This document shows, one piece after another, positions 3,514-33,536 of a stretch of DNA of 48,146 nucleotides. Both the position numbers and the translations under genes were made by a program. Every line of letters starts with the position of its first letter. Within the stretch, counting starts at the first letter, position 1. The stretch is from Deltaproteobacteria bacterium (GTDB taxonomy: Bacteria; Desulfobacterota; Desulfobacteria; Desulfobacterales; ETH-SRB1), in NCBI GenBank assembly GCA_030606805.1, contig JAUWFS010000002.1, positions 1 through 48,146 on the forward strand, in the 5' to 3' direction. The notes under the pieces are model-generated. The model was not told where the DNA came from and searched no databases. It saw only the letters and a program-made list of their open reading frames with translations.

Positions 3514-4382
3514 TCTTCTCTCCATATTCCAATATGTATAAAGCCGCCAAAATTAAGCTTATTATCAGCACTTGGGCCAAAGGCTGAGTTTGACTGACAT
3601 GCATCCCAGGTTTTGTCGCAACCTTTATGCATTATATATGTTGTTGTGTTATCCACTGCCACAGGAAGCGCAAGATCAAAGGTGATAGCATTAGTAGCAG
3701 CAACAAAATCTTTTACTTTCCTCTTATATGTTACACCACTTTTTGTTACTGATATCTTGCCGTAATTCCAGTAATCATCTGCTTGTGTAAGGGCACTATG
3801 TACGAGAGTTGTGGTAGTCCCCGAATCCGCCGTGCCGGACGCTGTGAGGGATGCAAGATTGGCATTACCGTCTTTATTGCATTGTGTTCCGCCAAAAATA
3901 TACCTACATTCTTTCGCGTATATTTCATTCAGAACCTTTTTGTTTAATGGTTTGCCCTCTGTAGCCGTTACAGTCATCCATTGCCGTCCGATTTCTTTTG
4001 GCTGTTCCATTTTGCCATGGAATACCTCAATATATTCCGATGAGGCAGCCGGTGCATGATTATCTGCATCAAGAAAAATCCGCTTAATTGTCAACATCCG
4101 GCCTTCAAAAACATACGAACGGGCATAAGCGGTCATGTCCTTAGCGACATTATCAAATTTGACTGTTATACGTCCAATCTGTCCTTCAAGAGATTGCGAA
4201 GCGCCGCTGAACATAATAGCCTTTGCCGTGTAGGTTGTGGCTCCGCCATGAGGGAATACAATGCTGGTTTTATATGCTGCATAACGAAGGGTTAAGCCAG
4301 TCAAAGCAAGCTCAAAAACAAGGGCAGTTTTTCTCCCCTGGGCATCAAGCTGTGTTGTGACATTTGCATCTAATGCTTTCAT
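3510..4382 (-). CDS. Minor tail protein, lambda L-like / GTA g13-like (DUF2163 + BR0599-type)
   Basis: 290 aa. It has C-terminal Cys clusters (ECRYIFGGTQCNKDG ... KGCDKTWDACQSNSAFG) and ends ...KLNFGGFIHIG, as in the gpL / BR0599 family. Gene order is TMP, then M-like, then L-like. Confidence 0.5.
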   Translation of the reverse strand: MKALDANVTTQLDAQGRKTALVFELALTGLTLRYAAYKTSIVFPHGGATTYTAKAIMFSGASQSLEGQIGRITVKFDNVAKDMTAYARSYVFEGRMLTIKRIFLDADNHAPAASSEYIEVFHGKMEQPKEIGRQWMTVTATEGKPLNKKVLNEIYAKECRYIFGGTQCNKDGNANLASLTASGTADSGTTTTLVHSALTQADDYWNYGKISVTKSGVTYKRKVKDFVAATNAITFDLALPVAVDNTTTYIMHKGCDKTWDACQSNSAFGPSADNKLNFGGFIHIGIWREE

Positions 4383-4738: not shown

Positions 4739-6900
4739 TACATACCTCCTCTGACTATCGATCTTACAGCCCCATCGTTATCATAATTTTCAACTACTGC
4801 CCCCGGTGCTACTTGAGCCGCCACTATACTCGCTATCTGAGCCATAACCTGCCTTTGCGTTTCTAAGTCTTGGAATGTTGGGTTATTCATAATGACATTT
4901 ACAGTTTGTTTTTGGTTGCCGCCTTCCGCTTTCACGCCAAGATCCCCTTTGGATGTTCTCGTCAATGGCATAATTGCTTCCGGCCCGGCTTCGCCCATCA
5001 GTCCAACTCCTCCGGCAAAAGCAAAATGGGTTGGTTTATTTACAATCCCGCCTTGTGCAAAAGGTTGTAATCCAGACTGCGAAAATACATTACCTTGCGC
5101 AGAAAATAAGCTGGTTATACTCTCTAATATTCCACCACCGGTTATGCCAGCAACTAAGGGCTCTATAATAGCCATTTGAATCATCGTTTGTGTAATCATT
5201 TTCATAAAGGATTCGAGTATGCTTTTAAAAGTGACTTCTGCGCCCCAAAGCATATCGTTTAGAGTAGAACTAAAATTGTTTGCCCAACCCATCATAGCAT
5301 TTTTCATATCACTGTATTTATCTTCTTCTAATCCCTTTTTTGTCGCAGCATACCATAATTCTAATCCGATTAAATCATCAGTAAAATTTTTATAATTTTC
5401 ATATCTTTCTTGAAGATCGGCTAAAGCAAAAGCTTTATCTTCCATCCTAATGGCCTTAATTTGTTCTGCTATACTTTTTTCCTGGCTTGTTCTATAAGAC
5501 GCATATTCGGCCAACCTTGCCTCTTCAACCTCATAAGCAGAAAGCCAACTTTCATGTCTTGCTGCTATGAATGGTTCTAATTCAGCCAACCTTTCTCTCT
5601 CTCTCATAATTGCTTTTATATCTGCATTCTCTTCCATTTCTTCAAGGTCTGCATAATATTTTGCATATCTTTTCTTCGTCTCCTCGGTTTGTTTATAAAC
5701 TGATTTTGCTATATCAGACAATGCTCCATAATATTTATCAGGATCTTCAAGAGCAAAATCTAATCTGGTGGTAATTCCTTTTGAAAGTATTTCTTGCATT
5801 TTTTCATATTGACTTAAAAATTTACTCGTTGATCTATCTATTTTATGAAATTCTAACCCTGTGTCCCACAATTCATCTTTAACTTTTTTCAAAACTTGAT
5901 AAAGCTTATCTCCTCGAAAAGTCACTATATGAAAAGAAAGCGCCAAAGACTCAAAGGCGGAAGCTAACGCTGAAACCATATAGGTTAGTGTTTTAATTGC
6001 TTTTGGAAGGTCTTGACCTAATTGAATTATTACTGTGGCTAATTGAGAAGACAATTCCCGCAAAGCTTCTTGTGCTTCCGGCCTTGATATTTCATCTTGA
6101 AATTCTTTCATTGCTTGAGTTGCGGCATCAACAAGCATTACTGTAGCAGGACCGAACGCTTTCCCCATTTTGACTTTAAAATCATCAACATAACGAATAA
6201 AGGAAGTTAGTTTCTTGCCAGCCGTCTCCATCGCACCCTCGTAAGCCCCTTCAATCAGTATTCCTGCTTTAATAACGGCATTAACACGGCCTTGCATAAC
6301 CTGGACTTCACTCATAGCTTTTCTCTTTATTCCGAGCGAGTCCGCTAATGCTCTTATAGAAGCGTCAAAGTTAACATTTAGGCCAATAGTTCTTAATATT
6401 CGAGGCATTCCCGTTTGAAGACCATAAATCATGTGTTCGAATGCAGCAGAAGAATTCATATTCCCGATTACAGCGGCATTTTGGGCAATACGCGCAAGTT
6501 TTTGAGAGCTTGTAAGGTCAATCTGTGCCTGAATCATTCTGGCGAGAGTATTCCGGCTTTCAATCATAGCAATACCGGATTTTTGCAACCCACGAGCGAA
6601 CGATTCCATTTGTGACCCGGAATATCCGGCATTCTTGCCTACCACACGCATAACCACGCCAAGCGTTTCATATCGAGCAGCAAGCAAGGCCGTATCCTTG
6701 ATATACTGTGCCATTTTCAGGAGAGCGTAAGAGGAAGCAAGAGCGACCACAACGGCCTGTAATTTAGAAAAGCCCCTTGTAACACCTTCGGTTGCAGTTT
6801 CAGTTTTTTTGCTATCGTCAGTGAGCTTATTCAGGTCTTTTGAAGCTGTGACAACGCCTTTACTGTCAACTTTTATGAAAAGTGAGGCCAGGTCAGCCAT
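4738..6900 (-). CDS. Tape measure protein, copy 1 (complete, 720 aa)
   Basis: It is a long helical Ala/Gln/Glu/Lys-rich ORF directly downstream of the chaperone pair. The C-terminal motif FAFAGGVGLMGEAGPEAIMPLTR is typical of lambda-H-type TMPs. Residues from about 375 to 720 are paralogous to the ORF at 47058..48146. Confidence 0.85.
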   Translation of the reverse strand: MADLASLFIKVDSKGVVTASKDLNKLTDDSKKTETATEGVTRGFSKLQAVVVALASSYALLKMAQYIKDTALLAARYETLGVVMRVVGKNAGYSGSQMESFARGLQKSGIAMIESRNTLARMIQAQIDLTSSQKLARIAQNAAVIGNMNSSAAFEHMIYGLQTGMPRILRTIGLNVNFDASIRALADSLGIKRKAMSEVQVMQGRVNAVIKAGILIEGAYEGAMETAGKKLTSFIRYVDDFKVKMGKAFGPATVMLVDAATQAMKEFQDEISRPEAQEALRELSSQLATVIIQLGQDLPKAIKTLTYMVSALASAFESLALSFHIVTFRGDKLYQVLKKVKDELWDTGLEFHKIDRSTSKFLSQYEKMQEILSKGITTRLDFALEDPDKYYGALSDIAKSVYKQTEETKKRYAKYYADLEEMEENADIKAIMRERERLAELEPFIAARHESWLSAYEVEEARLAEYASYRTSQEKSIAEQIKAIRMEDKAFALADLQERYENYKNFTDDLIGLELWYAATKKGLEEDKYSDMKNAMMGWANNFSSTLNDMLWGAEVTFKSILESFMKMITQTMIQMAIIEPLVAGITGGGILESITSLFSAQGNVFSQSGLQPFAQGGIVNKPTHFAFAGGVGLMGEAGPEAIMPLTRTSKGDLGVKAEGGNQKQTVNVIMNNPTFQDLETQRQVMAQIASIVAAQVAPGAVVENYDNDGAVRSIVRGGM

Positions 6901-11225: not shown

Positions 11226-11740
11226 TCATAGAGCACTGCCGTTCCTGCCGGTGAAACTGTCTTGAGTGGAGCCACAAGCGTATAAACTACCTCCGCTGCA
11301 TCAGTAGAAAATTTTCCTTTAGATGCCTGTTCAAGCCAGTCTAAGCCTATCATCATTACGTCCTTATCTGTTATTGTATCGCCTAAGACAGGGGCCGTTA
11401 ATGCCGCTCCTGCTGTGTTCAGTGGTGATAATAAAAGTCGTTTGTCACCTATCAATATCAAAGTTCCGTCGACTTGTCTTGAATCCCATTCCGTAATCGC
11501 CCCATTTCCGTATTGAAGTGAAAGAGTATTTACAATTCCCTCTCCTGGTACATATTCGCCGGGTATAACATGCTTAAGAATCACGGCTTGACCTTTGCCC
11601 ACAAGAAGCCGATTTGCTGTTTTCTGCATCCGGCCATAAAATCCAACGCCTACTTCCCCTGCTGCGGCTGGGGTCACTACCTGTTCAGTAGAAAATTTTC
11701 CTTTGGATGCCTGTTCGAGCCAGTCTAAACCTATTGCCAT
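11207..11740 (-). CDS. Head-tail adaptor / head closure-like protein containing an internal copy of its own 5' gene junction
   Basis: 177 aa. The call is by position among the connector genes. The sequence M(A/M)IGLDWLEQASKGKFST occurs at residue 1 and again at residue 129 (see findings). Confidence 0.35.
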   Translation of the reverse strand: MAIGLDWLEQASKGKFSTEQVVTPAAAGEVGVGFYGRMQKTANRLLVGKGQAVILKHVIPGEYVPGEGIVNTLSLQYGNGAITEWDSRQVDGTLILIGDKRLLLSPLNTAGAALTAPVLGDTITDKDVMMIGLDWLEQASKGKFSTDAAEVVYTLVAPLKTVSPAGTAVLYDCNLRV

Positions 11741-12975
11741 TACGTCCTCGTAAGTGTATCAACATTTCCGACTGTCGCTTTTGTAATCGTAAACAATAGC
11801 GTTTCACCGTCTGTATCATAAACCTTGAAGGTATTCGCTGCGCGGTCAATCACAACCTTTGCACCATTGAGCGATTGATTTATTTCATTTACAACGCTTG
11901 CTATCGCACCCGTGTCTGCTTGTTCAAGGGCATTCTCTGTCAGTCTTCGAATACCATCATCATCTTCTGTCATTTCCCAAAGATGATCTATTTTAGATCC
12001 ATCAACTTCTATTGCAGTCTTAACTGATGCCAATGCTGAATCTGTAAGACATGCTGTGCATGTTGTGCCATAAGGCATCATTACATATATAGATGTCGTG
12101 TCAGGAATTTCAACCCAGTCATCACCACAAATTGTCACAACTTTTGTAGTTCCGTTATACGAACTAACCAGCCGTGCTTGACCTCTGCCTTTTCCAGCTA
12201 TAATTGTAACGATATTACACAAATAAGCATCATTAACACTTGAAGCATATTCTCTTATCGTAATCGTTGTGCTGGTTCCACCTCGTGCTACTCCGTGATC
12301 AACTGTTAAGGGTGTGTCATCAGGAACTATCTGATATGTTGTTGTATTATCAGGAGTAACCCGCCAATCTCGATCTACTACTACTTTTTTAGTTGCACCG
12401 TCATAATCTACGACAGTTCTGGTTTGTCCCTTACCTGTATTGTCTGTAAGTACAATCAGATTTCTATTGTATACTCCATCTGTGCCATTCGCAATTGCCG
12501 CAAGCGTGATACTGTTTGAGGTTCCGGTCTGTGCAGTTCCCGACTCGATTGCAAATGCTCCAATTTCACGAATTCTTCTGCCTAATGATGTAGCAATGTT
12601 ATGACTTGAGCCTGTCAAAAGCGCATCGCAAACAGAATCCTCGGCATTTGCCAATACTGGTTTTAAATCAAAACTTCCAATAAAACCGGTCGGATTTTGT
12701 GAATCAATCGCAAGAGTGCAAAAAACTGCATAGGTATTATTTATGGCAAATCCATTAGCTGCCGTGGCTGCTATGGCCACTTCATAACATCCTGCCGGAT
12801 AATTTGCGTGGGTCAATAAAATCGGCGTAGGACTCAATACGGGAATTGCATCTACTGCCGCCCCTGCAAGCCGAACATCGACTAATGGAGTTGCACCATC
12901 GCCGCCTGATCCAGAAGTATCATTTGCGGCAAACCAGAAATACATAGTTGATTCTAAAGTTGCGTATTGTTTCAT
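11740..12975 (-). CDS. Hypothetical structural protein with an internal ~50-aa repeat
   Basis: 411 aa. The two repeats are LIVLTDNTGKGQTRTVVDYDGATKKVVVDRDWRVTPDNTTTYQIVP and IVTIIAGKGRGQARLVSSYNGTTKVVTICGDDWVEIPDTTSIYVMMP. It lies in the late module. Confidence 0.3.
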   Translation of the reverse strand: MKQYATLESTMYFWFAANDTSGSGGDGATPLVDVRLAGAAVDAIPVLSPTPILLTHANYPAGCYEVAIAATAANGFAINNTYAVFCTLAIDSQNPTGFIGSFDLKPVLANAEDSVCDALLTGSSHNIATSLGRRIREIGAFAIESGTAQTGTSNSITLAAIANGTDGVYNRNLIVLTDNTGKGQTRTVVDYDGATKKVVVDRDWRVTPDNTTTYQIVPDDTPLTVDHGVARGGTSTTITIREYASSVNDAYLCNIVTIIAGKGRGQARLVSSYNGTTKVVTICGDDWVEIPDTTSIYVMMPYGTTCTACLTDSALASVKTAIEVDGSKIDHLWEMTEDDDGIRRLTENALEQADTGAIASVVNEINQSLNGAKVVIDRAANTFKVYDTDGETLLFTITKATVGNVDTLTRT

Positions 12976-23659: not shown

Positions 23660-23847
23660 TTTGTTCCTCCCTTTTCAGCGTCCTTAAGTGTTTCGGTAAT
23701 TTCTGATATAATTTTTTCAAGATACAAGATTCGTTCCTTCAATTTTTCATTTTCTTTTTCCAGTTCCAACAATTGATTGTGACATGCTATCCATCGATTT
23801 TTTTCTGTTGATTGCGAATGAGTACCATAAGCTTTTAATTCTTCCAT
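23656..23847 (-). CDS. Small coiled-coil protein
   Basis: 63 aa with heptad-like LLELEKENEKLKERILYLEKIISEI and a good Shine-Dalgarno (AAGGAGGAGCAAC-ATG). Confidence 0.3.
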   Translation of the reverse strand: MEELKAYGTHSQSTEKNRWIACHNQLLELEKENEKLKERILYLEKIISEITETLKDAEKGGTK

Positions 23848-23911
23848 GTTGCTCCTCCTTGAATTAGTGTTATATTAATAAGTTATGTCTGTTTTTTTCG
23901 TAAAATGCCCA

Positions 23912-24240
23912 GCTAATTGACAGGTAGAAAAAAATGTATCTTGTATTATATCAATACTTTACTTAAAAAAATGCCAGGTAAAGAGTGCTAATTAGCAGGT
24001 AGAAAAAAATGTATCTTGTATTATATCAATACTTTACTTAAAAAGGACAGGTAAAAAGTATAGGTTGTATTCCCCTTATATTAAATACCCTATATATATA
24101 TATATATTTTATTTTTTATAATAAAGAAAGTAAGGGGCTTACCTGTCCTACCTGTCCTTTATATTAAAATCAGATACTTACACATATCTTACTTGGCCTT
24201 TACCTGGCTTTTACCTGGCCTTTACCTGGCCTTTTACCTA
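23912..24240. repeat. Iteron cluster with an AT-rich core, a putative replication origin
   Basis: There are two 58-bp direct repeats (23912..23969 and 23987..24044, 2 mismatches). CAGGTA occurs 4 times (23921, 23975, 23996, 24048). Across a (TA)8 / A+T-rich core (24091..24120), the inverse TACCTG occurs 5-6 times (24140, 24149, 24201, 24212, 24223 and a degenerate copy at 24235). The last three or four sit in TTTACCTGGCC units with 11-bp phasing. Confidence 0.55.
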
Positions 24241-24259
24241 TTTTTTGTCAATTTTCAAA

Positions 24260-26647
24260 TTATATTGCATCAACTTCTGACCCAAATCTACCTTGTGTAA
24301 ATTTTTTCCAGGGAATTTTAAGCCCAATTTTCTTCTCAAAAAACTTTCTACACGCCCTTTTGTCAGAAAAAACATAAAGACGTTTTTGCTTTTCACCAGA
24401 TATTGTTTTTCTTTTGTCAGGATTTACATCTGAAAATTCAACTAATTTTCTACCAAAAATTGCTGGGACAAGAGGACGTTTTTCTTTAATTACTTTATCA
24501 CAAAAATATATATAATCATTAAAAAGTTTTTCTCTTTGTATCCCTTCTTCGCCACCTAATGTCGAAAAATCACCAAGTAACTGTTCAAACCAAAATTTTT
24601 GAAATGATGTAAAATTATAAACCAATTGATTTAAAAGTCCTTCAGTCTTAGGCGCTTCTCGTAAGTTAAATTTTGTAATATCCAATGCTAATAAATCATA
24701 TAACATTGCAGATATGCCACCTTTTTTATACATTTGTTCATCAATTTTTTTAAAATAATTATGGTTTTGCATTTGAGTATCAGCAACATTTAGAACGAGA
24801 AATCTCCGCTCATATCTTCCTACAGACACAACCCAGTCATTATTTGATGCAATAATACAATTAATGTGGTTGGCCATTTTAATAGCATCTTTACCTTTTA
24901 GTTCAATCAAATGATGCTTTGATGTAATAAGAGATTTAAGAACACCCGCAATTGTTTTGTCCCCTGCAAAAAATGCCTCATCAAGATATAACAAAAGACA
25001 ATTTTTGAGATGCGAATTAAATCGACCGGTTGCTTGTGCCTGTTTTGTAACTAATTGATAATGATGACCAAATATTTCCCCAAAGATTTCAACGAAAACA
25101 CCTTTTCCAACTCCCCTTAACCCCTGCAAAACAATTGCTGTGCCAGGTTTTTCCCCGCCAGGATCTTGAACAATACGTGCCATCCATGCCATTAACCACT
25201 CATAATGAAGTAGGTTATCATTACAAATATTATGGAATAAGTGTTCTTTATATAAAGACCAGTCCCCATTGACGGGTTTATATGTCAAACCACGATATAA
25301 ATTATAAAATCTATCATCATTATTGTTTGGGTCAAAGACAATTCCTTGATATTCACGGCGTTTTGCTGAAGCCAACCAGGCATCTGCAATAGAAATTGTT
25401 TTAGACTGACCTTTTTTTCCATTATAATTCGGATTTGGTATTTTTTTATTGTAATACAATAATTTAAAATCATACAGAGATAAAAATTGAGGGTCTATAT
25501 AACCACTAATATCCACAATTTCGTATAAAATCCGCACTTTATTACCAAGAATTATAACAGCATGTTTTTTATTAAATTCATTAATTAAATCCTCACCGGC
25601 TTCTTCTGTGCCAGACTCATCAATTTTGACAAATTCAGCATTATTAATCATACTAATAATATCTTTATGTTTTCCATCCTTTAATAAATCATTGATATCA
25701 TGTTTGGCAGGTGTATCTTTCGGCCACTTAACGGTTTTAGTTTTTTCCCCAAGAATAATTGAAATTCTATCAAGTGCTTTTTGGCCTTCTTTGTCATTAT
25801 CTAAAAAACATATTATTTGAATATTATCATCGCGATATTTTCGTAAAGATTTGACCTTTTTGGTATAAATTGAACTACCGATTGCCAGACAACAAGCGGA
25901 CGGAAAACATTCCGCACAAGAAAAAGCATTAATAACAGATTCAAAAAGAATAATAATCTTTGCTTGTTTAATATTTTCTCCAATTTGAAAAAAACAACCC
26001 TCTTCGTTTTCTGAACCATATGTAAAAACTTTATCCTTTTTTTCGGTATCTGAATAAGACAAGCCGTCCACAGACAGCATTTGTATTGCCAGAACTTTTT
26101 TATCACCATCAAGTTCACAATACTGGCAGGCCACGGAAGACAACTCTTCCTGGTCTTTTAAATGATGTTTAACAAAACGTATTTTGTTGTTATTGTATGC
26201 TTTTAGAAATAGTTCCTTATTAATACCACGTCTTTTAGCAAGCCTGTAAATAGGATCAAGATTAGTATTTTTGTCATTAAGAATATTTTTCCACCTATCC
26301 TGCTGTGAATAAAGATTTTTTTTGGAAGGAATTTTTTCTTTTTTCTCTTGTGCTGGTTCCGGTTGAAGCTTTAAGGAAGGTTTCGGTTTATCATTAATAC
26401 CAAATTCATCGAATAATTCAGGCAGGGTTTTGTTATAAATCAGCCTATAAAGATCGATAACGTCCCCACCCTTGGGTCTGCAATGGCGGCACCAGAATTT
26501 TTGCTCATCTGTTTTATATACCAGTCTATCTGTGCCGCCGCATAAAGGACATGGTCCACATTCACTATTATCTGTCTCTCTTTTGAGCCCAGGTGCCATG
26601 TCAGGGATTGAAGGTAAAATTGCTTTTAAGGCTTCGATTCCATTCAT
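24260..26647 (-). CDS. Primase / SF3 helicase fusion (zinc finger + Toprim + D5-like P-loop NTPase)
   Basis: 795 aa. It has an N-terminal zinc finger CPLCGG...CRHC, a Toprim-like acidic motif FLDNDKEGQKA, a Walker A VLQGLRGVGKG and a Walker B LLYLDEA. Confidence 0.8.
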   Translation of the reverse strand: MNGIEALKAILPSIPDMAPGLKRETDNSECGPCPLCGGTDRLVYKTDEQKFWCRHCRPKGGDVIDLYRLIYNKTLPELFDEFGINDKPKPSLKLQPEPAQEKKEKIPSKKNLYSQQDRWKNILNDKNTNLDPIYRLAKRRGINKELFLKAYNNNKIRFVKHHLKDQEELSSVACQYCELDGDKKVLAIQMLSVDGLSYSDTEKKDKVFTYGSENEEGCFFQIGENIKQAKIIILFESVINAFSCAECFPSACCLAIGSSIYTKKVKSLRKYRDDNIQIICFLDNDKEGQKALDRISIILGEKTKTVKWPKDTPAKHDINDLLKDGKHKDIISMINNAEFVKIDESGTEEAGEDLINEFNKKHAVIILGNKVRILYEIVDISGYIDPQFLSLYDFKLLYYNKKIPNPNYNGKKGQSKTISIADAWLASAKRREYQGIVFDPNNNDDRFYNLYRGLTYKPVNGDWSLYKEHLFHNICNDNLLHYEWLMAWMARIVQDPGGEKPGTAIVLQGLRGVGKGVFVEIFGEIFGHHYQLVTKQAQATGRFNSHLKNCLLLYLDEAFFAGDKTIAGVLKSLITSKHHLIELKGKDAIKMANHINCIIASNNDWVVSVGRYERRFLVLNVADTQMQNHNYFKKIDEQMYKKGGISAMLYDLLALDITKFNLREAPKTEGLLNQLVYNFTSFQKFWFEQLLGDFSTLGGEEGIQREKLFNDYIYFCDKVIKEKRPLVPAIFGRKLVEFSDVNPDKRKTISGEKQKRLYVFSDKRACRKFFEKKIGLKIPWKKFTQGRFGSEVDAI

Positions 26648-26901
26648 GACTTCACTCCTTCTAATATATATTGCAGTTTTTCTTTTTGCCCCATTATTAA
26701 TATTTCTTCATTAAGATCAATTTTTTCCTTTCCAAAATTTTCTAAACCCATCCATATTACATCGCCTTCTTTGTCGGCCAAAATCATAAGCCTTTCGTCG
26801 GTATCAGTTTTTTTTGTATCTCCGTTTTTATGAAACATAATCCCTTTTTTTATAAGAATTTGATATTCTTTAAAGGGGTCCTGACAGGGTTTGATTCTCA
26901 T
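26644..26901 (-). CDS. Hypothetical protein (85 aa), translationally coupled to the primase
   Basis: It has a good Shine-Dalgarno (AAAGGAGAUUAUU-AUG) and an ATGA overlap with the primase start. I recognised no motif. Confidence 0.35.
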   Translation of the reverse strand: MRIKPCQDPFKEYQILIKKGIMFHKNGDTKKTDTDERLMILADKEGDVIWMGLENFGKEKIDLNEEILIMGQKEKLQYILEGVKS

Positions 26902-26942
26902 AATAATCTCCTTTCTATTTATAAATCATCTTAAAATAATAA

Positions 26943-27053
26943 CAGGGTATATAAGAGGAAGGTCATAGCTCCGCCGCCATATCCGGGAAATATGGTCTTA
27001 TATACCCTGTTTTGATTTTAAAATATTTTTGTTTTTGAGTTCTATGACAACTC
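26943..27053 (-). ncRNA. Structured leader RNA, copy A (kissing-loop leader family)
   Basis: On the minus strand, HP1 is GAGUU[GUCAUAG]AACUC (27053..27037). A 27-nt A/U linker follows. The compound hairpin (27009..26943) has a 14-bp basal stem CAGGGUAUAUAAGA/UCUUAUAUACCCUG that encloses CCAUAU-UUCCCGG-AUAUGG and GGAG[CUAUGAC]CUUC. The two bracketed loops are exact complements. Confidence 0.6.
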
Positions 27054-27103
27054 ATAGGATTTGATAAAAACTACCTTTCACACTTTCCATATTATATCCA
27101 ACT

Positions 27104-27571
27104 CTACCTGTCAAGATTATTCACATAATCATCATAATAGCGCCTCAATATCAAATATGTAACCTTTTCAGCCGATTGCCTGTCCCACATCGGCCATATA
27201 TGGATATTCTGTTTAATCGAAAATGAGATCAAACTTCTGAACACAGCCTTGCTTGACATGTGTGACCTACTTGGTGGATTTGTAAAAATTCCAGCCAAAG
27301 AGGTTTCAATAACTAAACCAGCATAATTAAATTCACTCATTCGTATAATTTCTTTTTTGAATCGATCTCTATTTTTACCCATACTGGAAAAAAGGTCATT
27401 CTTTTCTTTTCTTTCTATTACGATACGATCAACAAAACCATCCAAACTGTAATCGCCAGTACTTAAACCAATAATTTTTGTTTTAGGCTTTGGGTTAATA
27501 TTTTCAAAAGTATATTTTTTTTGTTCTCTACTATCAATTAGAATACAAAATTCTGGAATATTTGTTGTCAT
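27104..27571 (-). CDS. ERCC4 (XPF/Mus81/Hef-type) nuclease domain protein
   Basis: 155 aa. The motifs IDSREQK...GDYS....IVIERKEKNDLFSS match the ERCC4 nuclease signature GDY...ERK..DL. Confidence 0.6.
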   Translation of the reverse strand: MTTNIPEFCILIDSREQKKYTFENINPKPKTKIIGLSTGDYSLDGFVDRIVIERKEKNDLFSSMGKNRDRFKKEIIRMSEFNYAGLVIETSLAGIFTNPPSRSHMSSKAVFRSLISFSIKQNIHIWPMWDRQSAEKVTYLILRRYYDDYVNNLDR

Positions 27572-28254
27572 AATGATAATGAAGGTTGGAAATGTTTTTC
27601 AAGTTTTGCGCCTTTAGATATATTTTTTACAAGAGGTAATAATTGTAAGTTTTTTAAAGCCCAACAGCGCTGAAAATCAATATCAGTATATGACTTAAAA
27701 TTGTGAACAGAAATTGGAATAATGTGGTCAATACTTAAGTCAGTTTTACCATTGATATAATCTTTCCAAGTATAACCTTTTGGAATGGTTTTTTTAAGAC
27801 GTTTAATTAGTCCATCAATGGTATAAGGAACAAGACTTTCCCAATGCTTACCATTTTTACCTTTACTATTTTTTAATGATTTGCTCATACTGCTACGCAT
27901 AATATTGTTTAATTTATAATTTGGTTTTAGTTTTTGCTTGGCATTCTCTTTTCTACTTATTTCTTTTGTCTTTACCGGATTAGCTTTTCTGCAAGTTTTA
28001 TGATAAGCTTTTATTTTTTCTGAATTAGTTTTATAATAAGCTCTACAATTTTTTTTAAATATTTCTATATTATTTTTATAACGAGCTTTTCTTTTTTCTA
28101 TGCTATGTTTAGTATAAACTTTACTCTCAACAATTCTACATATTTTACACCTACATCGTATTCCAAAACAATTATCTTTTCTTTTATGAAATTCTTTAAA
28201 TGATTTTCTTTTACCACACACATTGCATACCCTTGTCAATTCAATCAATTTCAT
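27568..28254 (-). CDS. HNH homing endonuclease (paralog 1)
   Basis: I start it at the ATG at 28254 (MKLIELTRVCNVCGK..), because the track start at 28311 lies inside the structured leader. It has an N-terminal Cys cluster, Y..xN.EK repeats and the C-terminal HNH motif DLSIDHIIPISVHN...NLQLLPLVKNISKG. The last ~100 aa are about 75% identical to the ORF at 29735..30568. Its stop overlaps the ERCC4 start as ATGA. Confidence 0.75.
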   Translation of the reverse strand: MKLIELTRVCNVCGKRKSFKEFHKRKDNCFGIRCRCKICRIVESKVYTKHSIEKRKARYKNNIEIFKKNCRAYYKTNSEKIKAYHKTCRKANPVKTKEISRKENAKQKLKPNYKLNNIMRSSMSKSLKNSKGKNGKHWESLVPYTIDGLIKRLKKTIPKGYTWKDYINGKTDLSIDHIIPISVHNFKSYTDIDFQRCWALKNLQLLPLVKNISKGAKLEKHFQPSLSL

Positions 28255-28272
28255 ATTACACACCTTAAACGC

Positions 28273-28379
28273 AAAAATAGCCCAAGATAAAGGGTATGCA
28301 GCCCCAACCATATCGAGAATATGGCCTGCCTTGAGCTATTTTTATTTTTAAAGTTTTGATTGAGAACCCTGCATGATTC
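28273..28379 (-). ncRNA. Structured leader RNA, copy B (kissing-loop leader family)
   Basis: On the minus strand, HP1 is GAAUC[AUGCAG]GGUUC (28379..28364). A 20-nt linker follows. The compound hairpin (28343..28273) has a 14-bp basal stem AAAAAUAGCUCAAG/CUUGGGCUAUUUUU that encloses CCAUAU-UCUCG-AUAUGG and GGGG[CUGCAUA]CCCU. AUGCAG and CUGCAU are complementary. Confidence 0.6.
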
Positions 28380-28405
28380 ATTAGATTTGTTTATCTTTCA
28401 TATTT

Positions 28406-28434
28406 TTAATATTCCATTTTACTTTAATTGTCAA
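28406..28434 (-). promoter_or_regulatory. Sigma70-like promoter of HNH cassette B
   Basis: The minus strand reads TTGACA (28434..28429)-17 nt-TATTAA (28411..28406), in the gap after the helicase stop. Confidence 0.5.
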
Positions 28435-28436
28435 CA

Positions 28437-29738
28437 TTAAAGATTATCTAATATTTTATCCTGTATCTTTTGGGATAAAAAGGTGCATCTATTATATACT
28501 TTTGTATTTTTAACAACCTGTCGAATAAATGATTTTTGACCTACCGAAATTAGTATTTTTATTGCTCGTGAGACAGTTGTATAAAGCATAGCTTTATTAT
28601 AATGGAATGTAAAAGCTGAATGAACCGGAAATATTACTACAGGAAAGCCTGACCCTTGTGCCCGATGGGTCGTGATCGAATAGCTGAGTTTTAAATTATG
28701 ATTCCACTTATTAACTAAAACCCTTCGCTTAGGGCTCTCAAATTCCACTATCATTTGTTTATTATTACCCTGTAAATCAATTATTTTTCCTTGATCACCA
28801 TTCAAAACTATTTGTTTGTTCCCGCTGTCAACGTCAATACTGTCATACAAATTCTTACAATTAATTACACAACTGCCAAGTCTAAAACTTATAGTATTGC
28901 CATTATTGTTTTTAATAATATTTTCTTCAGGCTGCTGATTAACAATATTTTGAATTGATTTATTAAGGGCATCACAACTCAATATTGTTTTTGAATTAAC
29001 AGGAGATAGAACCTGCACATCACCATTATTAACTTCATACCCGCGCTTAACCATATTTTCAGTAGCAAGCTTGACAATCGTATCATGTATCACCTGCGGA
29101 ACACTGCATTCAATATGGATGTAATTGCTATTAGTCTTTAAATCGATCTTTCTGTCAGGTGATTCAGGTAACATATACCTTCGATCATCTGTCCGGATAG
29201 CAGTACACATTCTTACAATTTCGCCACTATTACGAAAAATATCTGTAAGTTCCGTGCAGGGTATGCATTTACAAGAGATAAGGTCATATAAAATGTTTCC
29301 GGGGCTTATCGAAGGCAATTGATTTGAGTCTCCGATTAATAATACTTTAGTTTTGTCATGGTCAATTGCTGATAATAAACTTGCGGCTAAATCATTCCCA
29401 ACCATTGACATCTCATCTATTGCCAAAAACGTACAATCTAATTTATTGTCAGCATTATAAGAAAATTGGAATTGTAATTTTCCATTAATTTTGGTTGGGA
29501 TGGGACGAAGCATCCGATGGATGGTACTTGCCGGGTGGCCTGTCATTTTACTGAGGACGCTTGCAGCTTTCCCACTGGGAGAACATAGTAATATTGAATG
29601 TCCTTCTGACTTCATATAATCAACTATGGTTTTTGTGATAGTCGTTTTGCCACAACCAGGACCACCGGTAAGGATAGATAACTTATTTTTTTTAACCATT
29701 TCCAATGCATCAAGCTGTTTGTTAGTGAGTTTTATCAT
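28437..29738 (-). CDS. RecD2/Dda-like SF1B helicase core (C-terminal part of a split RecD2-like gene)
   Basis: 433 aa. It has a Walker A ILTGGPGCGKTT, a Walker B FLAIDEMSMV, the motif LLIGDSNQLPS, and C-terminal ITTHRAQGSGFPVVIF...YTTVSRA (AAA_30 + UvrD_C_2 type). Confidence 0.85.
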   Translation of the reverse strand: MIKLTNKQLDALEMVKKNKLSILTGGPGCGKTTITKTIVDYMKSEGHSILLCSPSGKAASVLSKMTGHPASTIHRMLRPIPTKINGKLQFQFSYNADNKLDCTFLAIDEMSMVGNDLAASLLSAIDHDKTKVLLIGDSNQLPSISPGNILYDLISCKCIPCTELTDIFRNSGEIVRMCTAIRTDDRRYMLPESPDRKIDLKTNSNYIHIECSVPQVIHDTIVKLATENMVKRGYEVNNGDVQVLSPVNSKTILSCDALNKSIQNIVNQQPEENIIKNNNGNTISFRLGSCVINCKNLYDSIDVDSGNKQIVLNGDQGKIIDLQGNNKQMIVEFESPKRRVLVNKWNHNLKLSYSITTHRAQGSGFPVVIFPVHSAFTFHYNKAMLYTTVSRAIKILISVGQKSFIRQVVKNTKVYNRCTFLSQKIQDKILDNL

Positions 29739-30568
29739 AATAGTAGTGAAGGCTGAAAAGGTTTAATTAACTTAGCACCTTTTGACATATTTTTTAAAGC
29801 AGGCAATAGTTGAAGATTTTTTAAAGCCCAACATCGCTGAAAATCTGTGTCGGTATATGATTTGAAGTTATGAACTGCAATCAGAATTTTGTGATCAATT
29901 TGAAGATCGGTTTTACCATTAATATAATCATCCCACGTGTAGCCAGGCGGAAGTGTTTTCTTTAAATGTTTGATTAAATCGTCTAAGGTATAAGAAACAA
30001 GATTTTCCCAATGATAACCATTTTTACTATTTTTTAATGATTTACGAATAGAGTTTGACACAATTTGACTTAATTTAAATTTAGGGTTTATTCTACGCTT
30101 ATTCTTCATGTAAGCAGATATTTTTCCTTTATTTGCTTTATGATAAGCCTTTATCTTTTTCTTGTTTGCTTCACGATAAGCTTCTTGATATACGACTAAT
30201 TTTTCTTTATTGAATTCATAATAATTTTTATTATAAGTAGTTCTTTTTTCTTTATTTATTTCATAATAAGTCTTTTGATATACAACTAATTTTTCTTTGT
30301 TTGTTTTACGATAAATATCCATATAGGTGAATATTTTTTCTTTGTTTGTTTCACGATAAAACTTTTTACGAATAGCTATCTTTTTCTTGTTTGCTTCACG
30401 ATAAACCCTACCATGATCAACTATTTTTTTCTTATTTGATTTTTGATAAGCTTTTATTTTTTCCTTATTTTTTTTGTAGTAAACCTCTTTTTTGGTAGCT
30501 AATTTTTCTTTATTTACTTCTCGATATATCTTTTGATAAGCAGCTTCTTTTTCTTTTGTCCATGACAT
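29735..30568 (-). CDS. HNH homing endonuclease (paralog 2) with ~13 tandem 11-aa Y..xNKEKI repeats
   Basis: 277 aa. The repeats are (A/V)Y(Q/R)KxNKEKIxx. The C-terminus is DLQIDHKILIAVHN...NLQLLPALKNMSKG. Its stop overlaps the helicase start as ATGA. Confidence 0.75.
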   Translation of the reverse strand: MSWTKEKEAAYQKIYREVNKEKLATKKEVYYKKNKEKIKAYQKSNKKKIVDHGRVYREANKKKIAIRKKFYRETNKEKIFTYMDIYRKTNKEKLVVYQKTYYEINKEKRTTYNKNYYEFNKEKLVVYQEAYREANKKKIKAYHKANKGKISAYMKNKRRINPKFKLSQIVSNSIRKSLKNSKNGYHWENLVSYTLDDLIKHLKKTLPPGYTWDDYINGKTDLQIDHKILIAVHNFKSYTDTDFQRCWALKNLQLLPALKNMSKGAKLIKPFQPSLLL

Positions 30569-30591
30569 AATATTAACCCTTTAAAACAACA

Positions 30592-30702
30592 ATAGGATAT
30601 ACCAAAACGGAGGTCGCAGCTCCTAAACCACACGGGGAGTGAAGTTCTTTGATATACCCTATTCTAATTTTAAATTGATTTTTTTGAACTCTGCGACAGT
30701 TC
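30592..30702 (-). ncRNA. Structured leader RNA, copy C (kissing-loop leader family)
   Basis: On the minus strand, HP1 is GAACU[GUCGCAG]AGUUC (30702..30686). A 23-nt A/U linker follows. The compound hairpin (30662..30592) has a 16-bp basal stem AUAGGGUAUAUCAAAG/UUUUGGUAUAUCCUAU that encloses GGAG[CUGCGAC]CUCC. The two bracketed loops are exact complements. Confidence 0.6.
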
Positions 30703-30726
30703 ATAAGAATTTATCCTTTTCATTAT

Positions 30727-30755
30727 TTTATAATCATAATTGAAATATATGTCAA
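30727..30755 (-). promoter_or_regulatory. Sigma70-like promoter of HNH cassette C
   Basis: The minus strand reads TTGACA (30755..30750, overlapping the RecD-N stop)-17 nt-TATAAA (30732..30727). Confidence 0.5.
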
Positions 30756-31645
30756 GATAAAAATTTAACTATACAATTTGCAATTAAGGACTCATCTTTT
30801 GCAAATTGGGTGAGTGTTAAAAAATCGTTATCCTTAACTAAAATTTCTAACTCAACAAGTTGAATAAGTGCATTTAAAACATCAGCCAGCTTTATCCCAT
30901 TTATTAAACCCAAAATGTTTTTAGTAATTACACTTGATTTTAACCAAACATCTCCAGTATCACCCATTATTTGCTTTATAATATATATTATTCCAAACTT
31001 GATGCGCTCTGGATTATTTAATTTTATGCCACATTCTATCGCAATTTTATCCGCTGATAAAAATCCAATTCGGTTTATTTCAGTTAAAATATATGGTGTA
31101 TTTTTAACGATCTCGTAAGCGGTTAGGCCATACAGGGCCACCAAATTTTGGGATAAATTACGAGGCAAACCTTTGACTCTTGAGAACAACCCTTCTAATT
31201 TAATAAGCAATTCTTGCCGCTTGTCGCCTTCTTGTAGCTGTTCACTGATTTCAAGCGCAAGTTTGTATGATATCCCTTTATTTTCATTCGTAATACGCTC
31301 TGGCGCCTTCTTGAGGATCCGAATTGTATGCTTTCCGTATTTCTCAATCAGCATATCAGCCAAAACCGGCCCGATGCCATTAACATGCTTTTCAAGATAA
31401 ATAGCGATTGAATCAGCGGCAACTGGTTCTTTAACGCAATAACTATCAATTTTAAATTGCTTCCCGTATTTTGCGTGTTCCGTCCAATCACCTGACATTT
31501 CGTATGTAATGCCTGCGGCTGGATTGAATAAGTCGCCGGTTGCGATAAATTCAAGGCCGGTTTCAGGTTGGAAAGCAACTATGGTGAAGTCGTTTTCGAG
31601 GGACCGCCATATAACTTTTTTTAGCCTTGCTGTGATGTCAGGCAT
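30752..31645 (-). CDS. RecD2-like helicase N-terminal (helix-hairpin-helix) domain protein
   Basis: 297 aa. The segment ..FIATGDL....G..YEMSGDWTEHAKYGKQFKI......P.....IAIYLEKHVNGIGPVLADMLIEKYGKHTI.IL...PE.. matches the N-terminal OB/HHH region of RecD2 (YrrC-type) helicases. It ends where the AAA_30 domain would normally begin. Confidence 0.6.
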   Translation of the reverse strand: MPDITARLKKVIWRSLENDFTIVAFQPETGLEFIATGDLFNPAAGITYEMSGDWTEHAKYGKQFKIDSYCVKEPVAADSIAIYLEKHVNGIGPVLADMLIEKYGKHTIRILKKAPERITNENKGISYKLALEISEQLQEGDKRQELLIKLEGLFSRVKGLPRNLSQNLVALYGLTAYEIVKNTPYILTEINRIGFLSADKIAIECGIKLNNPERIKFGIIYIIKQIMGDTGDVWLKSSVITKNILGLINGIKLADVLNALIQLVELEILVKDNDFLTLTQFAKDESLIANCIVKFLS

Positions 31646-32134: not shown

Positions 32135-32865
32135 TCTATTTCCTCATCATAATTATCAACCTTAACTATCTTCCCGAATGATTCCCTCACATGCACAAGC
32201 GCCTTTCTATACCCCTTAAATTCAGGGTAGTATTTTTCATCAATCAACATTTTCTCATACAACCCAAGCTGCAACCCATATTTAACAACGTCACAATTTT
32301 TCAAATGTTCAATCGGTTCCAGCATATTCCCGAATGCACCTTCTTCATCAGTGATCTTATTATTAGTTTTCCAATCGATTATAATGCCTTGCTGCGCAGT
32401 ATCATCGGCCATTAATAAATCTATCTGACCGGCAATCTCCATGCTCGGAGAAAAGACAATTTGTTCAGCAGCAACCAATCTGAACCGCTCAAGCAACTTC
32501 GGAAATAATTTATTAACTTGTTTACCCATTCTCAATAATCTATATGTTTTTGGAAGCCAGCCCCAACATCCTTTGCCCGGCCATCGTTCACATAAGGCAT
32601 GTAATTCCGTCCCTTCCATTGATGATAGGGTTGCTTTTTCTTTCCATTGATATTGGATTTCATTAACAGATAAACCTACATACTTCGGTTTTTTCTTATC
32701 AACCATGCGTTGAGCCATTTTGAGAGCGTTAAAGGGGGGAGTGTAACTCTTAATAATAGTAGTTACAGAAGTAAGCAGATCACCCGTTTCTTTAATACGA
32801 TACGAATGATCTGCTTCCGTGAAGATGCAAGTTAAACCGTTATGAGTAGCTGTTTTATCCGGCAT
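32119..32865 (-). CDS. PD-(D/E)XK (RecB/Cas4-like) nuclease
   Basis: 248 aa with motifs GQIDLLM...IIDWKTN...LQLGLYEKM (D...D/ExK...QxxxY). Confidence 0.6.
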   Translation of the reverse strand: MPDKTATHNGLTCIFTEADHSYRIKETGDLLTSVTTIIKSYTPPFNALKMAQRMVDKKKPKYVGLSVNEIQYQWKEKATLSSMEGTELHALCERWPGKGCWGWLPKTYRLLRMGKQVNKLFPKLLERFRLVAAEQIVFSPSMEIAGQIDLLMADDTAQQGIIIDWKTNNKITDEEGAFGNMLEPIEHLKNCDVVKYGLQLGLYEKMLIDEKYYPEFKGYRKALVHVRESFGKIVKVDNYDEEIECLML

Positions 32866-33364
32866 GGTTATTACTATTTCTACGATTATTAGCTTGTACT
32901 TTTTTTGTAGCCCAAATACAATTTTCAGGTGAATAACCTTTTTCGTTGTTAACTCGTTCTAAAGTAAGTTCCGGCTTTGGTTTTAATCCCATATCTTCAA
33001 AAAAGTTTTCAAATTTTAACCAACGGTCACAGACTTTGATTCCCCGACCACCATAATATTTATAACCTGTATTGTTTATATTTAAACAACGTGCTTTCAT
33101 ATTTTGCCAAGTTGAATATTCAGAGGTGTGACACTTTCCATGAGTTGTAAAATTTTTTATAGTTGTTTCTCGGCGTAAACAACCACATGATTTTAAAAGT
33201 CCTCGGCGAAATCCCCTTTTTAATTCTTCTCCTTTTTTTATTAAATATTCACCACAACTACATCTCACCCACCAAAGTGATTGAGATTTTTTATCATTTC
33301 CGGCTTTTGCAATCACAGTTAATCTACCAAATTTTTGTCCTACTAATTGTAATGGTTTACTCAT
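32855..33364 (-). CDS. Conserved phage protein of unknown function (GRLTV ... YGGRGI motifs, Cys cluster)
   Basis: 169 aa. It has GQKFGRLTVI, CSCG...CGC, W.NMKARC and YYGGRGIKVCDRW. This motif set recurs in many phage genomes, but I cannot assign a function. Confidence 0.3.
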   Translation of the reverse strand: MSKPLQLVGQKFGRLTVIAKAGNDKKSQSLWWVRCSCGEYLIKKGEELKRGFRRGLLKSCGCLRRETTIKNFTTHGKCHTSEYSTWQNMKARCLNINNTGYKYYGGRGIKVCDRWLKFENFFEDMGLKPKPELTLERVNNEKGYSPENCIWATKKVQANNRRNSNNHAG

Positions 33365-33379
33365 TTTATATATACTCCT

Positions 33380-33454
33380 AAAAACAAAAAAACTTCCTGG
33401 AATATGGTCGGATACGACTCCGCTCTATCCTTACGGAATAGAGGTTCCAGGAAG
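33380..33454 (-). terminator. Terminator-like compound hairpin inside a 5' leader (leader D)
   Basis: On the minus strand, the 10-bp basal stem CUUCCUGGAA/UUCCAGGAAG (33454..33393) encloses two small hairpins (CUCUAUUCC-GUAA-GGAUAGAG and GUCG-UAUC-CGAC). It is followed by UUUUUUUGUUUUU, then the Shine-Dalgarno AGGAG and the ATG at 33364. Confidence 0.5.
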
Positions 33455-33507
33455 CTTTTCTATCTTGCAAGCTTAATTTATATTTCGTATTGTTTACCAT
33501 GTTTTTT

Positions 33508-33536
33508 TATATATATAAAACAATTTAAAAAGTCAA
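33508..33536 (-). promoter_or_regulatory. Sigma70-like promoter upstream of leader D
   Basis: The minus strand reads TTGACT (33536..33531)-17 nt-TATATA (33513..33508), starting right after the stop of the upstream ORF. Confidence 0.45.

Follow-up and report, generated by a model that had tools for sequence, protein, structure and literature searches.

A covarying leader RNA family with a loop-loop helix at gene junctions of a phage replication region

Promoter-early stem-loop (PeSL) elements of T4-like phages are repeated units of a sigma70-like promoter and a stem-loop, ending at the Shine-Dalgarno (SD) sequence and start codon of the next open reading frame (ORF) (PMC2839356, PMC4122927). 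They occur before ORFans and accessory genes, at plastic loci and between the split replication gene cistrons g43A/g43B, and their copies serve as crossover points for module exchange (PMC2839356, PMC4122927). In addition, phage homing-endonuclease genes, including I-TevI/II/III, segB, mobE and seg43(25), are restrained by hairpins that sequester the ribosome-binding site (RBS) and by 5' terminators (PMC2988022). Here we analyze a leader RNA, designated copy A, in a 48,146-nucleotide (nt) stretch of contig JAUWFS010000002.1 (assembly GCA_030606805.1, Deltaproteobacteria bacterium), which is referred to below as the window. Copy A occupies positions 27114..26927 of the minus strand, the coding strand for every gene in this part of the window, and lies between the gene for an ERCC4-type nuclease and a short ORF that precedes a primase/helicase gene. 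It is a true member of a small, lineage-specific, strongly covarying and previously undescribed family of leader RNAs.

Two covariance models were used to delimit this family. Model R1, based solely on the manually aligned window copies A, B and C, found leaders in other phages with E values of 1e-10 to 1e-15: on IMG/VR contig 3300002220_000408 (L004/L081; two copies, 67-71 bits), on 3300010411_000016 (L082; two copies, 90-93 bits) and on 3300035698_009019 (L108; one copy, 72 bits). The second model, R2, recovered a copy on an ENA scaffold (L402), which scores 82 bits. Copy A itself scores 125-130 bits, but it is a training sequence. Pairing statistics were computed over nine copies from five phages, in which 98.4% of cells are paired and 32 of 37 pairs have changed on both sides. 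None of 500 shuffles reached the observed value, a statistic that overstates independence because the copies share ancestry, and sliding the pairing partners reduced the paired fraction to 36-46%. The kissing helix between two loops of the leader is a pseudoknot and was left out of the covariance model. Over the same nine copies, 98% of its cells are paired and six of its seven pairs covary; this long-range loop-loop contact is established by covariation independently of the model. Eight distinct loop pairs occur among ten copies, including the L402 A-site copy that is cut by the contig end (Table 1).

The copies share a common plan, consisting of a 5-bp hairpin (HP1), a three-way junction whose closing stem (P2) has 10-16 bp, and six or seven Watson-Crick kissing pairs. 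An A-rich linker and a U-rich tail flank P2, and the tail ends at the SD of the next ORF. The TTGACA promoter and the U-rich tail running into the next SD are found throughout, copy A having a poor -10 element and an SD 25 nt beyond its tail. Leaders B and C have the architecture of copy A, with a P2 of only 10 bp in B, and the -35 element of C overlaps the stop codon of the gene for the RecD2 N-terminal domains. Minimum free energy z-scores against shuffled sequences are -4.2, -3.0 and -3.4 for the three window copies.

In copy A, the two hairpins described in an earlier note on this DNA, HP1 and the compound hairpin containing what is here called P4, were read directly on the minus strand, as were its other sequence statements for this position. 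The placement of the leader between the ERCC4 gene and an ORF of 85 amino acids (aa) coupled to the primase gene by ATGA was confirmed from the sequence, and the ATGA overlaps listed in that note (HNH gene with helicase core, HNH gene with ERCC4 gene, 85-aa ORF with primase gene) are all present. The promoter also reads as described, TTGACA-17-TATGGA with its -35 element inside the end of the ERCC4 gene, and its description as weaker holds as a statement about consensus only. TTGACA is kept upstream of all core leader copies in the alignments, and the -10 element is poor in the A-site orthologues too (TAATGT in L082 and CATGGA in L402).

The fold of copy A begins about 35 nt downstream of its -10 element. 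An invariant AUGA, at 27055..27052 in this copy, stands at the foot of HP1, and its G is the first paired base of the hairpin; it starts an upstream ORF (uORF). The loops of P4 (26968..26962) and HP1 are exactly complementary and can form a kissing helix of 7 bp. No junction nucleotides separate P2 from P3, and the tail motif is degenerate (UUUUAAGAUG). The A-site leaders of the window and L082 differ by compensatory changes in HP1, the kissing loops and P3, which indicates that the fold of copy A is still under selection.

Table 1. Leader elements, associated genes and loop pairs in the window (coordinates without a handle) and in related phages
Feature	Coordinates	Strand	Description
Promoter A, -35 TTGACA	27109..27114	-	Within final ERCC4 codons; direct reading
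Promoter A, -10-like TATGGA	27086..27091	-	17-nt spacer from -35; poor TATAAT match
GAAAGG	27074..27079	-	Purine-rich, SD-like; near predicted 5' end; kept in all copies (alignments)
HP1 GAGUU[GUCAUAG]AACUC	27037..27053	-	All 5 pairs covary over nine copies
uORF of copy A	26963..27055	-	30 codons (MSCHRTQKQKYFKIKTGYIRPYFPDMAAEL); UGA stop (26965..26963) inside P4 loop
A-rich linker	27010..27036	-	Includes conserved UUUAAAAU; able to pair with U-rich tail, giving basal helix P1
P2, 5' strand CAGGGUAUAUAAGA	26996..27009	-	14-bp stem; 12 of 14 pairs covary
P3 CCAUAUU-UCCCG-GAUAUGG	26977..26995	-	Hairpin with C-rich loop; 7 of 7 pairs covary
P4 GGAG[CUAUGAC]CUUC	26958..26972	-	Hairpin; one arm of the three-way junction closed by P2
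P2, 3' strand UCUUAUAUACCCUG	26943..26956	-	Pairs with 27009..26996
U-rich tail UUAUUAUUUUAAGAUG	26927..26942	-	Counterpart UUUUAAGGAG is the SD of the next ORF in other copies; vestigial in A
Primase/helicase gene	24260..26647	-	Toprim and DUF5906/VapE-like; Pfam, PHROG
85-aa ORF	26644..26901	-	Own SD AAAGGAG at 26914..26908; stop overlaps primase start by ATGA
ERCC4-type nuclease gene	27104..27571	-	Upstream of leader A; Pfam PF02732, 1.2e-11; phrog_3490; TAG stop 27106..27104
228-aa HNH-like ORF	27568..28254	-	Behind leader B; phrog_1035, 4e-11; ATGA overlap with ERCC4 start
Leader B with promoter	28261..28434	-	TTGACA 28434..28429; leader itself 28388..28261
RecD2 helicase core	28437..29738	-	Pfam, PHROG
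277-aa HNH-like ORF	29735..30568	-	Behind leader C; paralogue; ATGA overlap with helicase-core start
Leader C with promoter	30576..30755	-	TTGACA 30755..30750; leader itself 30711..30576
RecD2 N-terminal domains	30752..31645	-	Pfam, PHROG
169-aa HNH endonuclease gene	32855..33364	-	Different family; behind fourth element; phrog_374, 1.5e-62
Fourth, divergent leader-like element	33375..33508	-	Covariance model scores 22.6 and 29.3 bits, E 0.01-0.04
Split recD2	window 30752..31645 and 28437..29738; L203 2844..5002; L082 2265..4612; L108 6..2118		
Decaying endonuclease genes, L108	2118..2290 and 664..853		About 60-aa HNH behind leader C; C-terminal HNH fragment (IDFQKCWALKNLQLL...)
Mosaic tract compared	L402 1..2667 with window 27130..29613		Leaders bound both ends
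Leader-like element, L006	1917..2071		AGGAGCA/inner UGCUCCU and CGUGA/UCACG; uncharacterised 193-aa ORF, no Pfam domain
Leader-like element, L015	11668..11806		UAGGAGA/inner UCUCCUA and ACGUGU/ACACGU; DUF559-type nuclease gene
Leader-like element, L036	1053..1195		UCACAAA/UUUGUGA; T5orf172 gene
Leader-like element, L015	5763..5893		10-bp complement; HNH homologue
Loop pair (HP1/P4), copy A			GUCAUAG/CUAUGAC
Loop pair (HP1/P4), B and L082B			AUGCAG/CUGCAU
Loop pair (HP1/P4), copy C			GUCGCAG/CUGCGAC
Loop pair (HP1/P4), L082A			GUAGCAG/CUGCUAC
Loop pair (HP1/P4), L108C			GUCACGG/CCGUGAC
Loop pair (HP1/P4), L081_1			AUUACGG/CCGUAAU
Loop pair (HP1/P4), L081_2			GUGCAG/CUGCAC
Loop pair (HP1/P4), L402B			GUGACAG/CUGUCAC
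Loop pair (HP1/P4), L402A			UGGCAG/CUGCCA; copy cut by contig end

Rfam 15, whose families include HEARO/omega-RNA, group I and II introns, known ribozymes, riboswitches and phage RNAs, has no match in the whole window at gathering thresholds, and at E <= 10 its only matches to 26850..27150 are to microRNA and small nucleolar RNA families at chance level; a description of such a motif was not found in the literature. No further family members were found by a near-identity search of the phage collection or by scans of viral contigs with a single protein (primase) or with the P4 pattern. A P4-pattern scan of 185,579 genomes gave at least 120 matches, seven of those listed having a 6-mer complement, at chance level, and none of the 23 loci scanned gave a convincing covariance model match. 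Leader matches were likewise absent from 67 RecD2-N loci and 12 metagenome ERCC4 loci.

Several other classes of element were considered. A self-cleaving ribozyme is considered unlikely, as the junction nucleotides vary, and a DNA-level element (operator or origin) is ruled out by covariation in the loop-loop helix. A group I intron or intron-encoded endonuclease was rejected because no intron model matches and the ATGA overlap leaves no 3' intron, and a group I intron splitting recD2 because recD2 is also two ORFs in L203, a metagenome relative that lacks the inserts. The position of a structured RNA immediately 5' of an HNH-containing ORF resembles HEARO and IscB omega-RNA. However, Rfam gives no match, and the proteins, at 169-277 aa, are too small and have no detected RuvC or other omega-RNA-effector domain. 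The leaders also precede unrelated, non-HNH genes and lack a variable 5' segment resembling a guide; a guide RNA of this kind was therefore rejected.

Of the described systems, PeSL is the nearest in kind. Each of the four window elements combines a TTGACA or TTGACT promoter, a stem and an SD before an ORF, and a block shared by the window and L402 is bounded by a leader tail and the next promoter, although this is a single event. PeSL elements, however, are simple G/C hairpins at or upstream of the promoter that stop upstream transcription only, whereas the present leader is a transcribed element of about 135 nt that folds into a three-way junction, is joined by a covarying kissing loop of 7 bp and is spanned by a uORF; these differences are decisive against membership. 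Furthermore, the two are unrelated in sequence and belong to different phage lineages. The leaders also resemble the RBS hairpins of phage endonuclease genes in placing a stable RNA directly upstream of a free-standing endonuclease gene, which is itself inserted into a gene junction or a split replication gene. In several leader copies the SD is predicted to be paired (probabilities of 0.65-0.99), a likeness that fails for copy A (0.49). The case that copy A resembles is seg43(25) of Aeromonas phage 25, whose hairpin stops shortly before an RBS that is left unpaired. The T4 elements are simple hairpins relieved by an internal late promoter, whereas the leaders have no internal promoter, add a uORF and a tertiary kissing contact, and also head genes other than endonuclease genes.

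Plasmid replication control offers a different comparison. In R1 (tap/repA, with CopA-CopT) and ColIb-P9 (repY/repZ), a short leader ORF must be translated to open the replication gene, and a loop-loop contact at its initiation region sets this translation; the loop partner in R1 is an antisense RNA acting in trans, and in ColIb-P9 a pseudoknot next to the SD activates translation. The phage leaders share with these a leader ORF of unimportant sequence that ends at the SD or start codon and a 6-7-bp loop-loop contact at the initiation region of that ORF. They differ in having both loops in cis, with the partner about 30 nt upstream of the SD and no evident antisense promoter. In attenuators of the pyrBI type, the leader ORF runs through the terminator, and a closely following ribosome prevents terminator formation. 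The uORF of the leaders similarly spans a terminator-like stem and U-run, but neither a U-rich pause nor a nucleotide-sensing logic is evident, and the stem is a branched one at which termination is a prediction.

Comparison among related phages, which the earlier note had proposed as a way to decide whether the leader travels with the HNH genes, shows the leader as an apparent resident at exchangeable module boundaries of the replication region and the endonuclease genes as its lodgers: taken together, L082, L081, L402 and 80 HNH loci indicate that the HNH genes move and the leader stays. L082 is syntenic with the window. At its A site an orthologous leader lies between the ERCC4 and primase genes, followed only by a 26-aa ORF and no endonuclease gene. 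At its B site the leader precedes an HNH gene of the phrog_374 type (8e-45), whereas the B sites of the window and L402 have the phrog_1035 type. Its C site has no leader, and the recD2 halves are parted by a 64-aa ORF (3546..3740, minus strand, phrog_2993) at the exact position of leader C and its HNH gene in the window and L108. In L108, leader C is followed by an internally deleted HNH remnant of about 60 aa, and a deletion at the B site extends from just past the -35 element into the HNH C-terminus, leaving 'IDFQKCWALKNLQLL'; the C-terminal HNH fragment directly follows the helicase core where leader B was deleted. The L081 leaders head a Dam methylase gene and a replication-initiator gene, the latter followed by dnaB, and the HNH homologue of that contig is 4-5 kb away on the opposite strand. 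Among 80 viral loci with HNH homologues, clear core-family leaders occur in one (L004), beside other genes; three more have weak leader-like matches and 76 lack even a weak match.

The relative L203 (63% aa identity in ERCC4) has the RecD2 N-terminal, core, ERCC4 and primase genes in a compact arrangement, with junctions that overlap or span 24 nt and with neither leaders nor HNH genes. Relative to the L203 junction TTTTTGACATGA, the insert at site C falls exactly after TTGAC(A) and before ATGA. As L203 has the same genes without either component, the leaders and their cargo are insertions at gene junctions. The same applies to the fourth element of the window, whose promoter reads TTGACT. This element also has a 5' hairpin whose loop, GAUA, finds its complement in an inner loop, UAUC, a stem (GCUUCCUGGAA/UUCCAGGAAGU) with a U-run behind it, and a spanning uORF of 40 codons. 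It heads the third HNH gene (33364..32855). In L203 the genes flanking this site abut and the 169-aa HNH gene is absent from the junction, which indicates that the fourth element and its HNH gene are an inserted unit in the window. The corresponding gap in L082 has a 95-nt tRNA-like gene called by ARAGORN (5380..5474, minus strand; anticodon undetermined); no tRNA genes were found in the window.

The window and L402 carry the record of a more recent event. Their helicase genes are only about 60% identical, and the helicase gene and leader core together show 53-77% nucleotide identity. From the tail of leader B (UUUUUGCGUUUAAGG, about 28268) through the HNH gene and ERCC4 to about 27190, identity is 95-100%, and it drops again at promoter A (0.88, 0.82 and 0.67). 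This tract, which from its identity profile is a product of recent lateral transfer or co-conversion, indicates an exchange that moved the HNH and ERCC4 genes without the leader, its ends being the leader tail and the promoter of the next leader. The two leaders of L402, at 1227..1360 (B) and 2512..2667 (A), are of the same type, with P2 AGCGUUUCAAC and a P3 with a GCAA tetraloop, and their kissing loops differ by a compensated change. This suggests that these copies may be homogenized with each other, their private loop 'addresses' being kept apart.

HNH genes of at least two families, as well as other accessory ORFs, thus appear to lodge between the leader and the next core gene, to which they are tied by ATGA. 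A structured family of resident leaders is highly probable. Homologues elsewhere, the absence of which would have weakened the earlier note, were found in L081, L082, L108 and L402. Its suggestion of a general regulatory device of the replication genes is borne out in that the leader stays with module boundaries and not with HNH genes; the word general does not hold, as L203 lacks leaders.

The sequence features around the start of HP1 point to translation. The AUGA at the foot of HP1 is invariant while the rest of HP1 covaries, and it is preceded at 9-18 nt by GAAAGG; in copy A the distance to the AUG is 18 nt, i.e., far. In 13 of 13 leader or leader-like elements this AUG opens an ORF of 30-47 codons, which in most of them spans the fold; neither of the two other reading frames stays open across the linker. 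Against local shuffles that preserve composition, the openness of the uORF has P = 0.02-0.25 for each element. In most copies the uORF stops at or near the point where the next ORF has its SD or start codon. Its peptide shows no relationship from copy to copy, A, C and L082A pass through P4 in different frames, and the uORFs of B and L082B are separated by six nonsynonymous changes and one synonymous change, the same changes restoring base pairs. These features indicate that the RNA and not the peptide is under selection.

A U-run follows P2 in every copy (UUAUUAUUUU in A, (A)UUUUUGCGUUU in B and UUGUUGUUUU in C). The SD of the cargo gene has a predicted pairing probability of 0.65-0.99 in B, C, L082B, L108C, L081_1, L081_2 and L402B, against a median of 0.50 for 45 other genes of the window (Mann-Whitney p = 3e-5). 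In copy A, the SD of the 85-aa ORF lies outside the fold, 25 nt past the tail, and its pairing probability of 0.49 equals background. Pairing of linker with tail (P1) is stronger than for shuffled linkers in L108C, L081_1, L081_2 and L402B (P <= 0.006) and is weak in copy A (-6.3 kcal/mol, P = 0.14).

From these features it may be proposed that the leader throttles whatever gene lies behind it. The long stem and U-run would attenuate transcription, and in several copies the stem and linker would also conceal the SD. Ribosomes translating the uORF through the whole fold would open the structure and pass on to the next ORF by translational coupling, and, with the junction folded, the kissing helix would lock or bury the start of the uORF. 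Copy A would be a partly dismantled version, with a weak promoter, an early UGA, a degenerate tail and a cargo that has its own SD, and its remaining role could be attenuation or insulation between the ERCC4 and primase genes. A resident leader at module boundaries that acts as a throttle is the best explanation of the whole, and one to which we give an even chance. The gating of this throttle by the uORF, a mechanism read from sequence and predicted folds, is more tentative, somewhat short of even.

Several observations weigh against this combined explanation. P1 exceeds composition-matched shuffles in only four of nine copies, none of them from the window. A simple terminator scan gives no call for P2, because P2 closes a branched loop instead of forming a simple hairpin. 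The openness of the uORF is only moderately significant and the copies are not independent; furthermore, stop codons are scarce in all frames of the 3' half, which is rich in U and G. Copy A shows neither SD occlusion (0.49) nor coupling (early UGA), and its present function is the least certain. Finally, leader C and its HNH gene are jointly present in the window and L108 and jointly absent from L082 and L203, and the site-B deletion of L108 took leader and HNH gene together; this joint gain and loss would make leader and HNH gene a co-mobile cassette for some events, as a minority scenario. Extended to the whole family, this becomes the proposal that the leader is the 5' part of a mobile endonuclease cassette (promoter, leader and HNH gene), in which copy A is a relic and the 85-aa ORF replaced the endonuclease. 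The lack of leaders and HNH genes at all L203 junctions, the distribution at site C and the L108 deletion of leader plus N-terminal HNH part agree with this proposal. So do the nuclease genes (HNH, T5orf172 and DUF559) behind five of nine core copies and most distant leader-like elements, and the orphan status of the 85-aa ORF, which is down to 26 aa in L082. However, the sole datable transfer (window/L402) moved HNH and ERCC4 genes and left the leader about 60% identical, with its left breakpoint in the leader's 3' tail. In addition, orthologous B leaders head unrelated HNH families, the L081 leaders head the methylase and initiator genes, 79 of 80 HNH-homologue loci have no clear core-family leader, and the 85-aa ORF has no detected similarity to nucleases. 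Such a cassette is accordingly an unlikely account of the family.

The remaining alternatives retain the leader at its site and assign it another activity. If it were a promoter/terminator insulator at an operon boundary, P2 and the U-run would terminate or attenuate transcription from upstream, the promoter would restart it, and the uORF and kissing loop would merely stabilize the fold. A perfect 10-16-bp stem followed by a U-run is present in every copy, with a canonical look in the divergent elements win4 (the fourth of the window), L036 and L077, and the PeSL cassettes of T4-like phages are promoter and stem-loop units that do terminate (PMC2839356). Nevertheless, the fold lies behind the promoter of the leader, whose transcripts it would stop as well, a terminator needs neither a covarying kissing loop nor an invariant AUGA, the terminator scan gives no call, and the U-run partly pairs with the A-rich linker; an insulator of this type is quite improbable. 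A role in RNA processing or stability is suggested by the quasi-continuous helix of 25-35 bp (P1 and P2, stacked on P3), which could be an RNase III-type site or a 5' stabilizer. RNase III sites in the early RNAs of T7 and SP82 cut polycistronic RNA and set translation of the next ORF, and the leaders are likewise long perfect duplexes at intergenic boundaries, repeated in one genome and, in copy A, without P2/P3 junction nucleotides. This would leave the invariant AUGA, the spanning uORF and the kissing loop unexplained, P2 is just 10 bp in copy B, and we consider it very unlikely. There is also a slim chance that the leader acts beyond its own transcript, as a terminated small RNA of about 140 nt, as an RNA resembling put that modifies RNA polymerase for processive antitermination, or through head-to-tail intermolecular kissing of HP1 with P4. 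Its promoter-proximal placement is like that of put sites, covariation is blind to whether kissing is intra- or intermolecular, and each copy within a genome has a private loop pair; however, there are no conserved unpaired nucleotides for polymerase binding, the junction nucleotides being variable, and no complementary target elsewhere was found, although no search aimed at one was made. That the small protein encoded by the uORF is the functional product, for example, a hydrophobic toxin-like peptide to which the fold is secondary, is extremely unlikely. Every copy does have an ORF of 30-47 codons with an SD-like element, and several C-termini are hydrophobic, a property attributable to translation of a U-rich strand. 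The sequences are unrelated between copies, however, the P4 frame varies among A, C and L082A, and the six nonsynonymous changes and one synonymous change between B and L082B restore pairs.

The resident leaders have a further possible role, as landing pads. Their conserved promoter and 3' tail could give homology or a cleavage site for unrelated homing-endonuclease and accessory genes, which would move between leader copies and between phages while the loop pairs diversified under nuclease or recombination pressure or, alternatively, through avoidance of trans kissing among co-expressed leaders, the compensatory changes preserving the RNA. Taken jointly, these steps are improbable.

Of the genes lodged behind the leaders, the 228-aa and 277-aa ORFs have 59% identity across 192 aa, and residues D176, H177, N202 and N211 are invariant in 36 homologues of their family. 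Neither ORF has a Pfam match even at E <= 10 or a sequence match in the PDB. An AlphaFold 2 (AF2) model (predicted local distance difference test score [pLDDT] of 86) gave only a weak, 37-residue local match to Hpy99I (probability 0.96, E 0.9). The HNH label of the earlier note therefore lacks a Pfam HNH match and is retained on the invariant D-H...N...N residues, the PHROG label 'endonuclease VII' and the weak local fold match; both proteins are probably HNH-like, i.e., beta-beta-alpha-Me nucleases. The family is large, counting 400 proteins in the database (E <= 1e-3) and 361 loci on viral contigs, and has no Pfam domain or solved structure. Its members have N-terminal K/E-rich repeats of about 11 aa (Y..NKEK) or a zinc-finger-like CxxC...CxxC segment. 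The two decaying HNH genes of L108 are snapshots of the homing-endonuclease loss cycle. The 85-aa ORF belongs to no Pfam or PHROG family, its library matches are itself and a spurious PYRIN-repeat protein, and no similarity to any nuclease was detected in Pfam, PHROG or library searches; its single-sequence AF2 model has a pLDDT of 48. The N-terminus of the 26-aa ORF at the same site in L082 resembles that of the 85-aa ORF, and this reduction indicates that the latter behaves like decaying cargo. The other suggestion of the earlier note, that this ORF occupies the slot of a lost or replaced endonuclease, is a possible account of its origin.

The RecD2-like helicase consists of two ORFs (an OB/HhH N-terminal part and a helicase core) in all four related phages. 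In L203 these overlap by ATGA with nothing between them, and the presence of the split in this insert-free relative indicates that it is ancestral and older than the insertion of leader and HNH gene. A probable replication origin is located just downstream of the primase gene (23840..24275, especially 24189..24243 and 23912..24044). It has five 11-nt iterons (TTACCTGGCCT) at 11-nt spacing within 24243..24189, an (AT)n run, copies of the iteron core in inverted orientation, and a pair of 58-nt direct repeats that are 97% identical, 75 nt apart and each contain TTGATATAAT. The iteron region 24243..24189 is probably a better origin candidate than the leaders. The nearest cultured phages are Vibrio phages, with 35-57% aa identity on single proteins.

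Weak covariance model matches elsewhere have a promoter, a single-stranded 5' segment whose complement lies in an inner loop of a large stem, and, at the end of this stem, a U-run and an SD (Table 1). The L006 element and that of L015 at 11668-11806 are alike and are separated by compensatory differences, and their 5' segment includes the SD of the spanning uORF. The elements of L006, L015 and L036 are possible members of a wider group, as distant relatives only.

A previously undescribed structured family enlarges the short list of cis-regulatory RNAs in phages, and with it the view of regulatory repeats as exchange points, known from PeSL, reaches an unrelated lineage of phages, where the RNA is much more elaborate. 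For the phages that carry these leaders, selfish nuclease genes could use ready-made, throttled sites at operon junctions, sparing the essential replication genes through ATGA coupling. Orthogonal kissing pairs of 6-7 nt within one genome may also be of interest for RNA engineering. If the landing-pad reading is true, the sequence of the RNA would have been shaped by an arms race with the selfish genes under its control, and the leaders would constitute a natural set of orthogonal kissing-loop switches.

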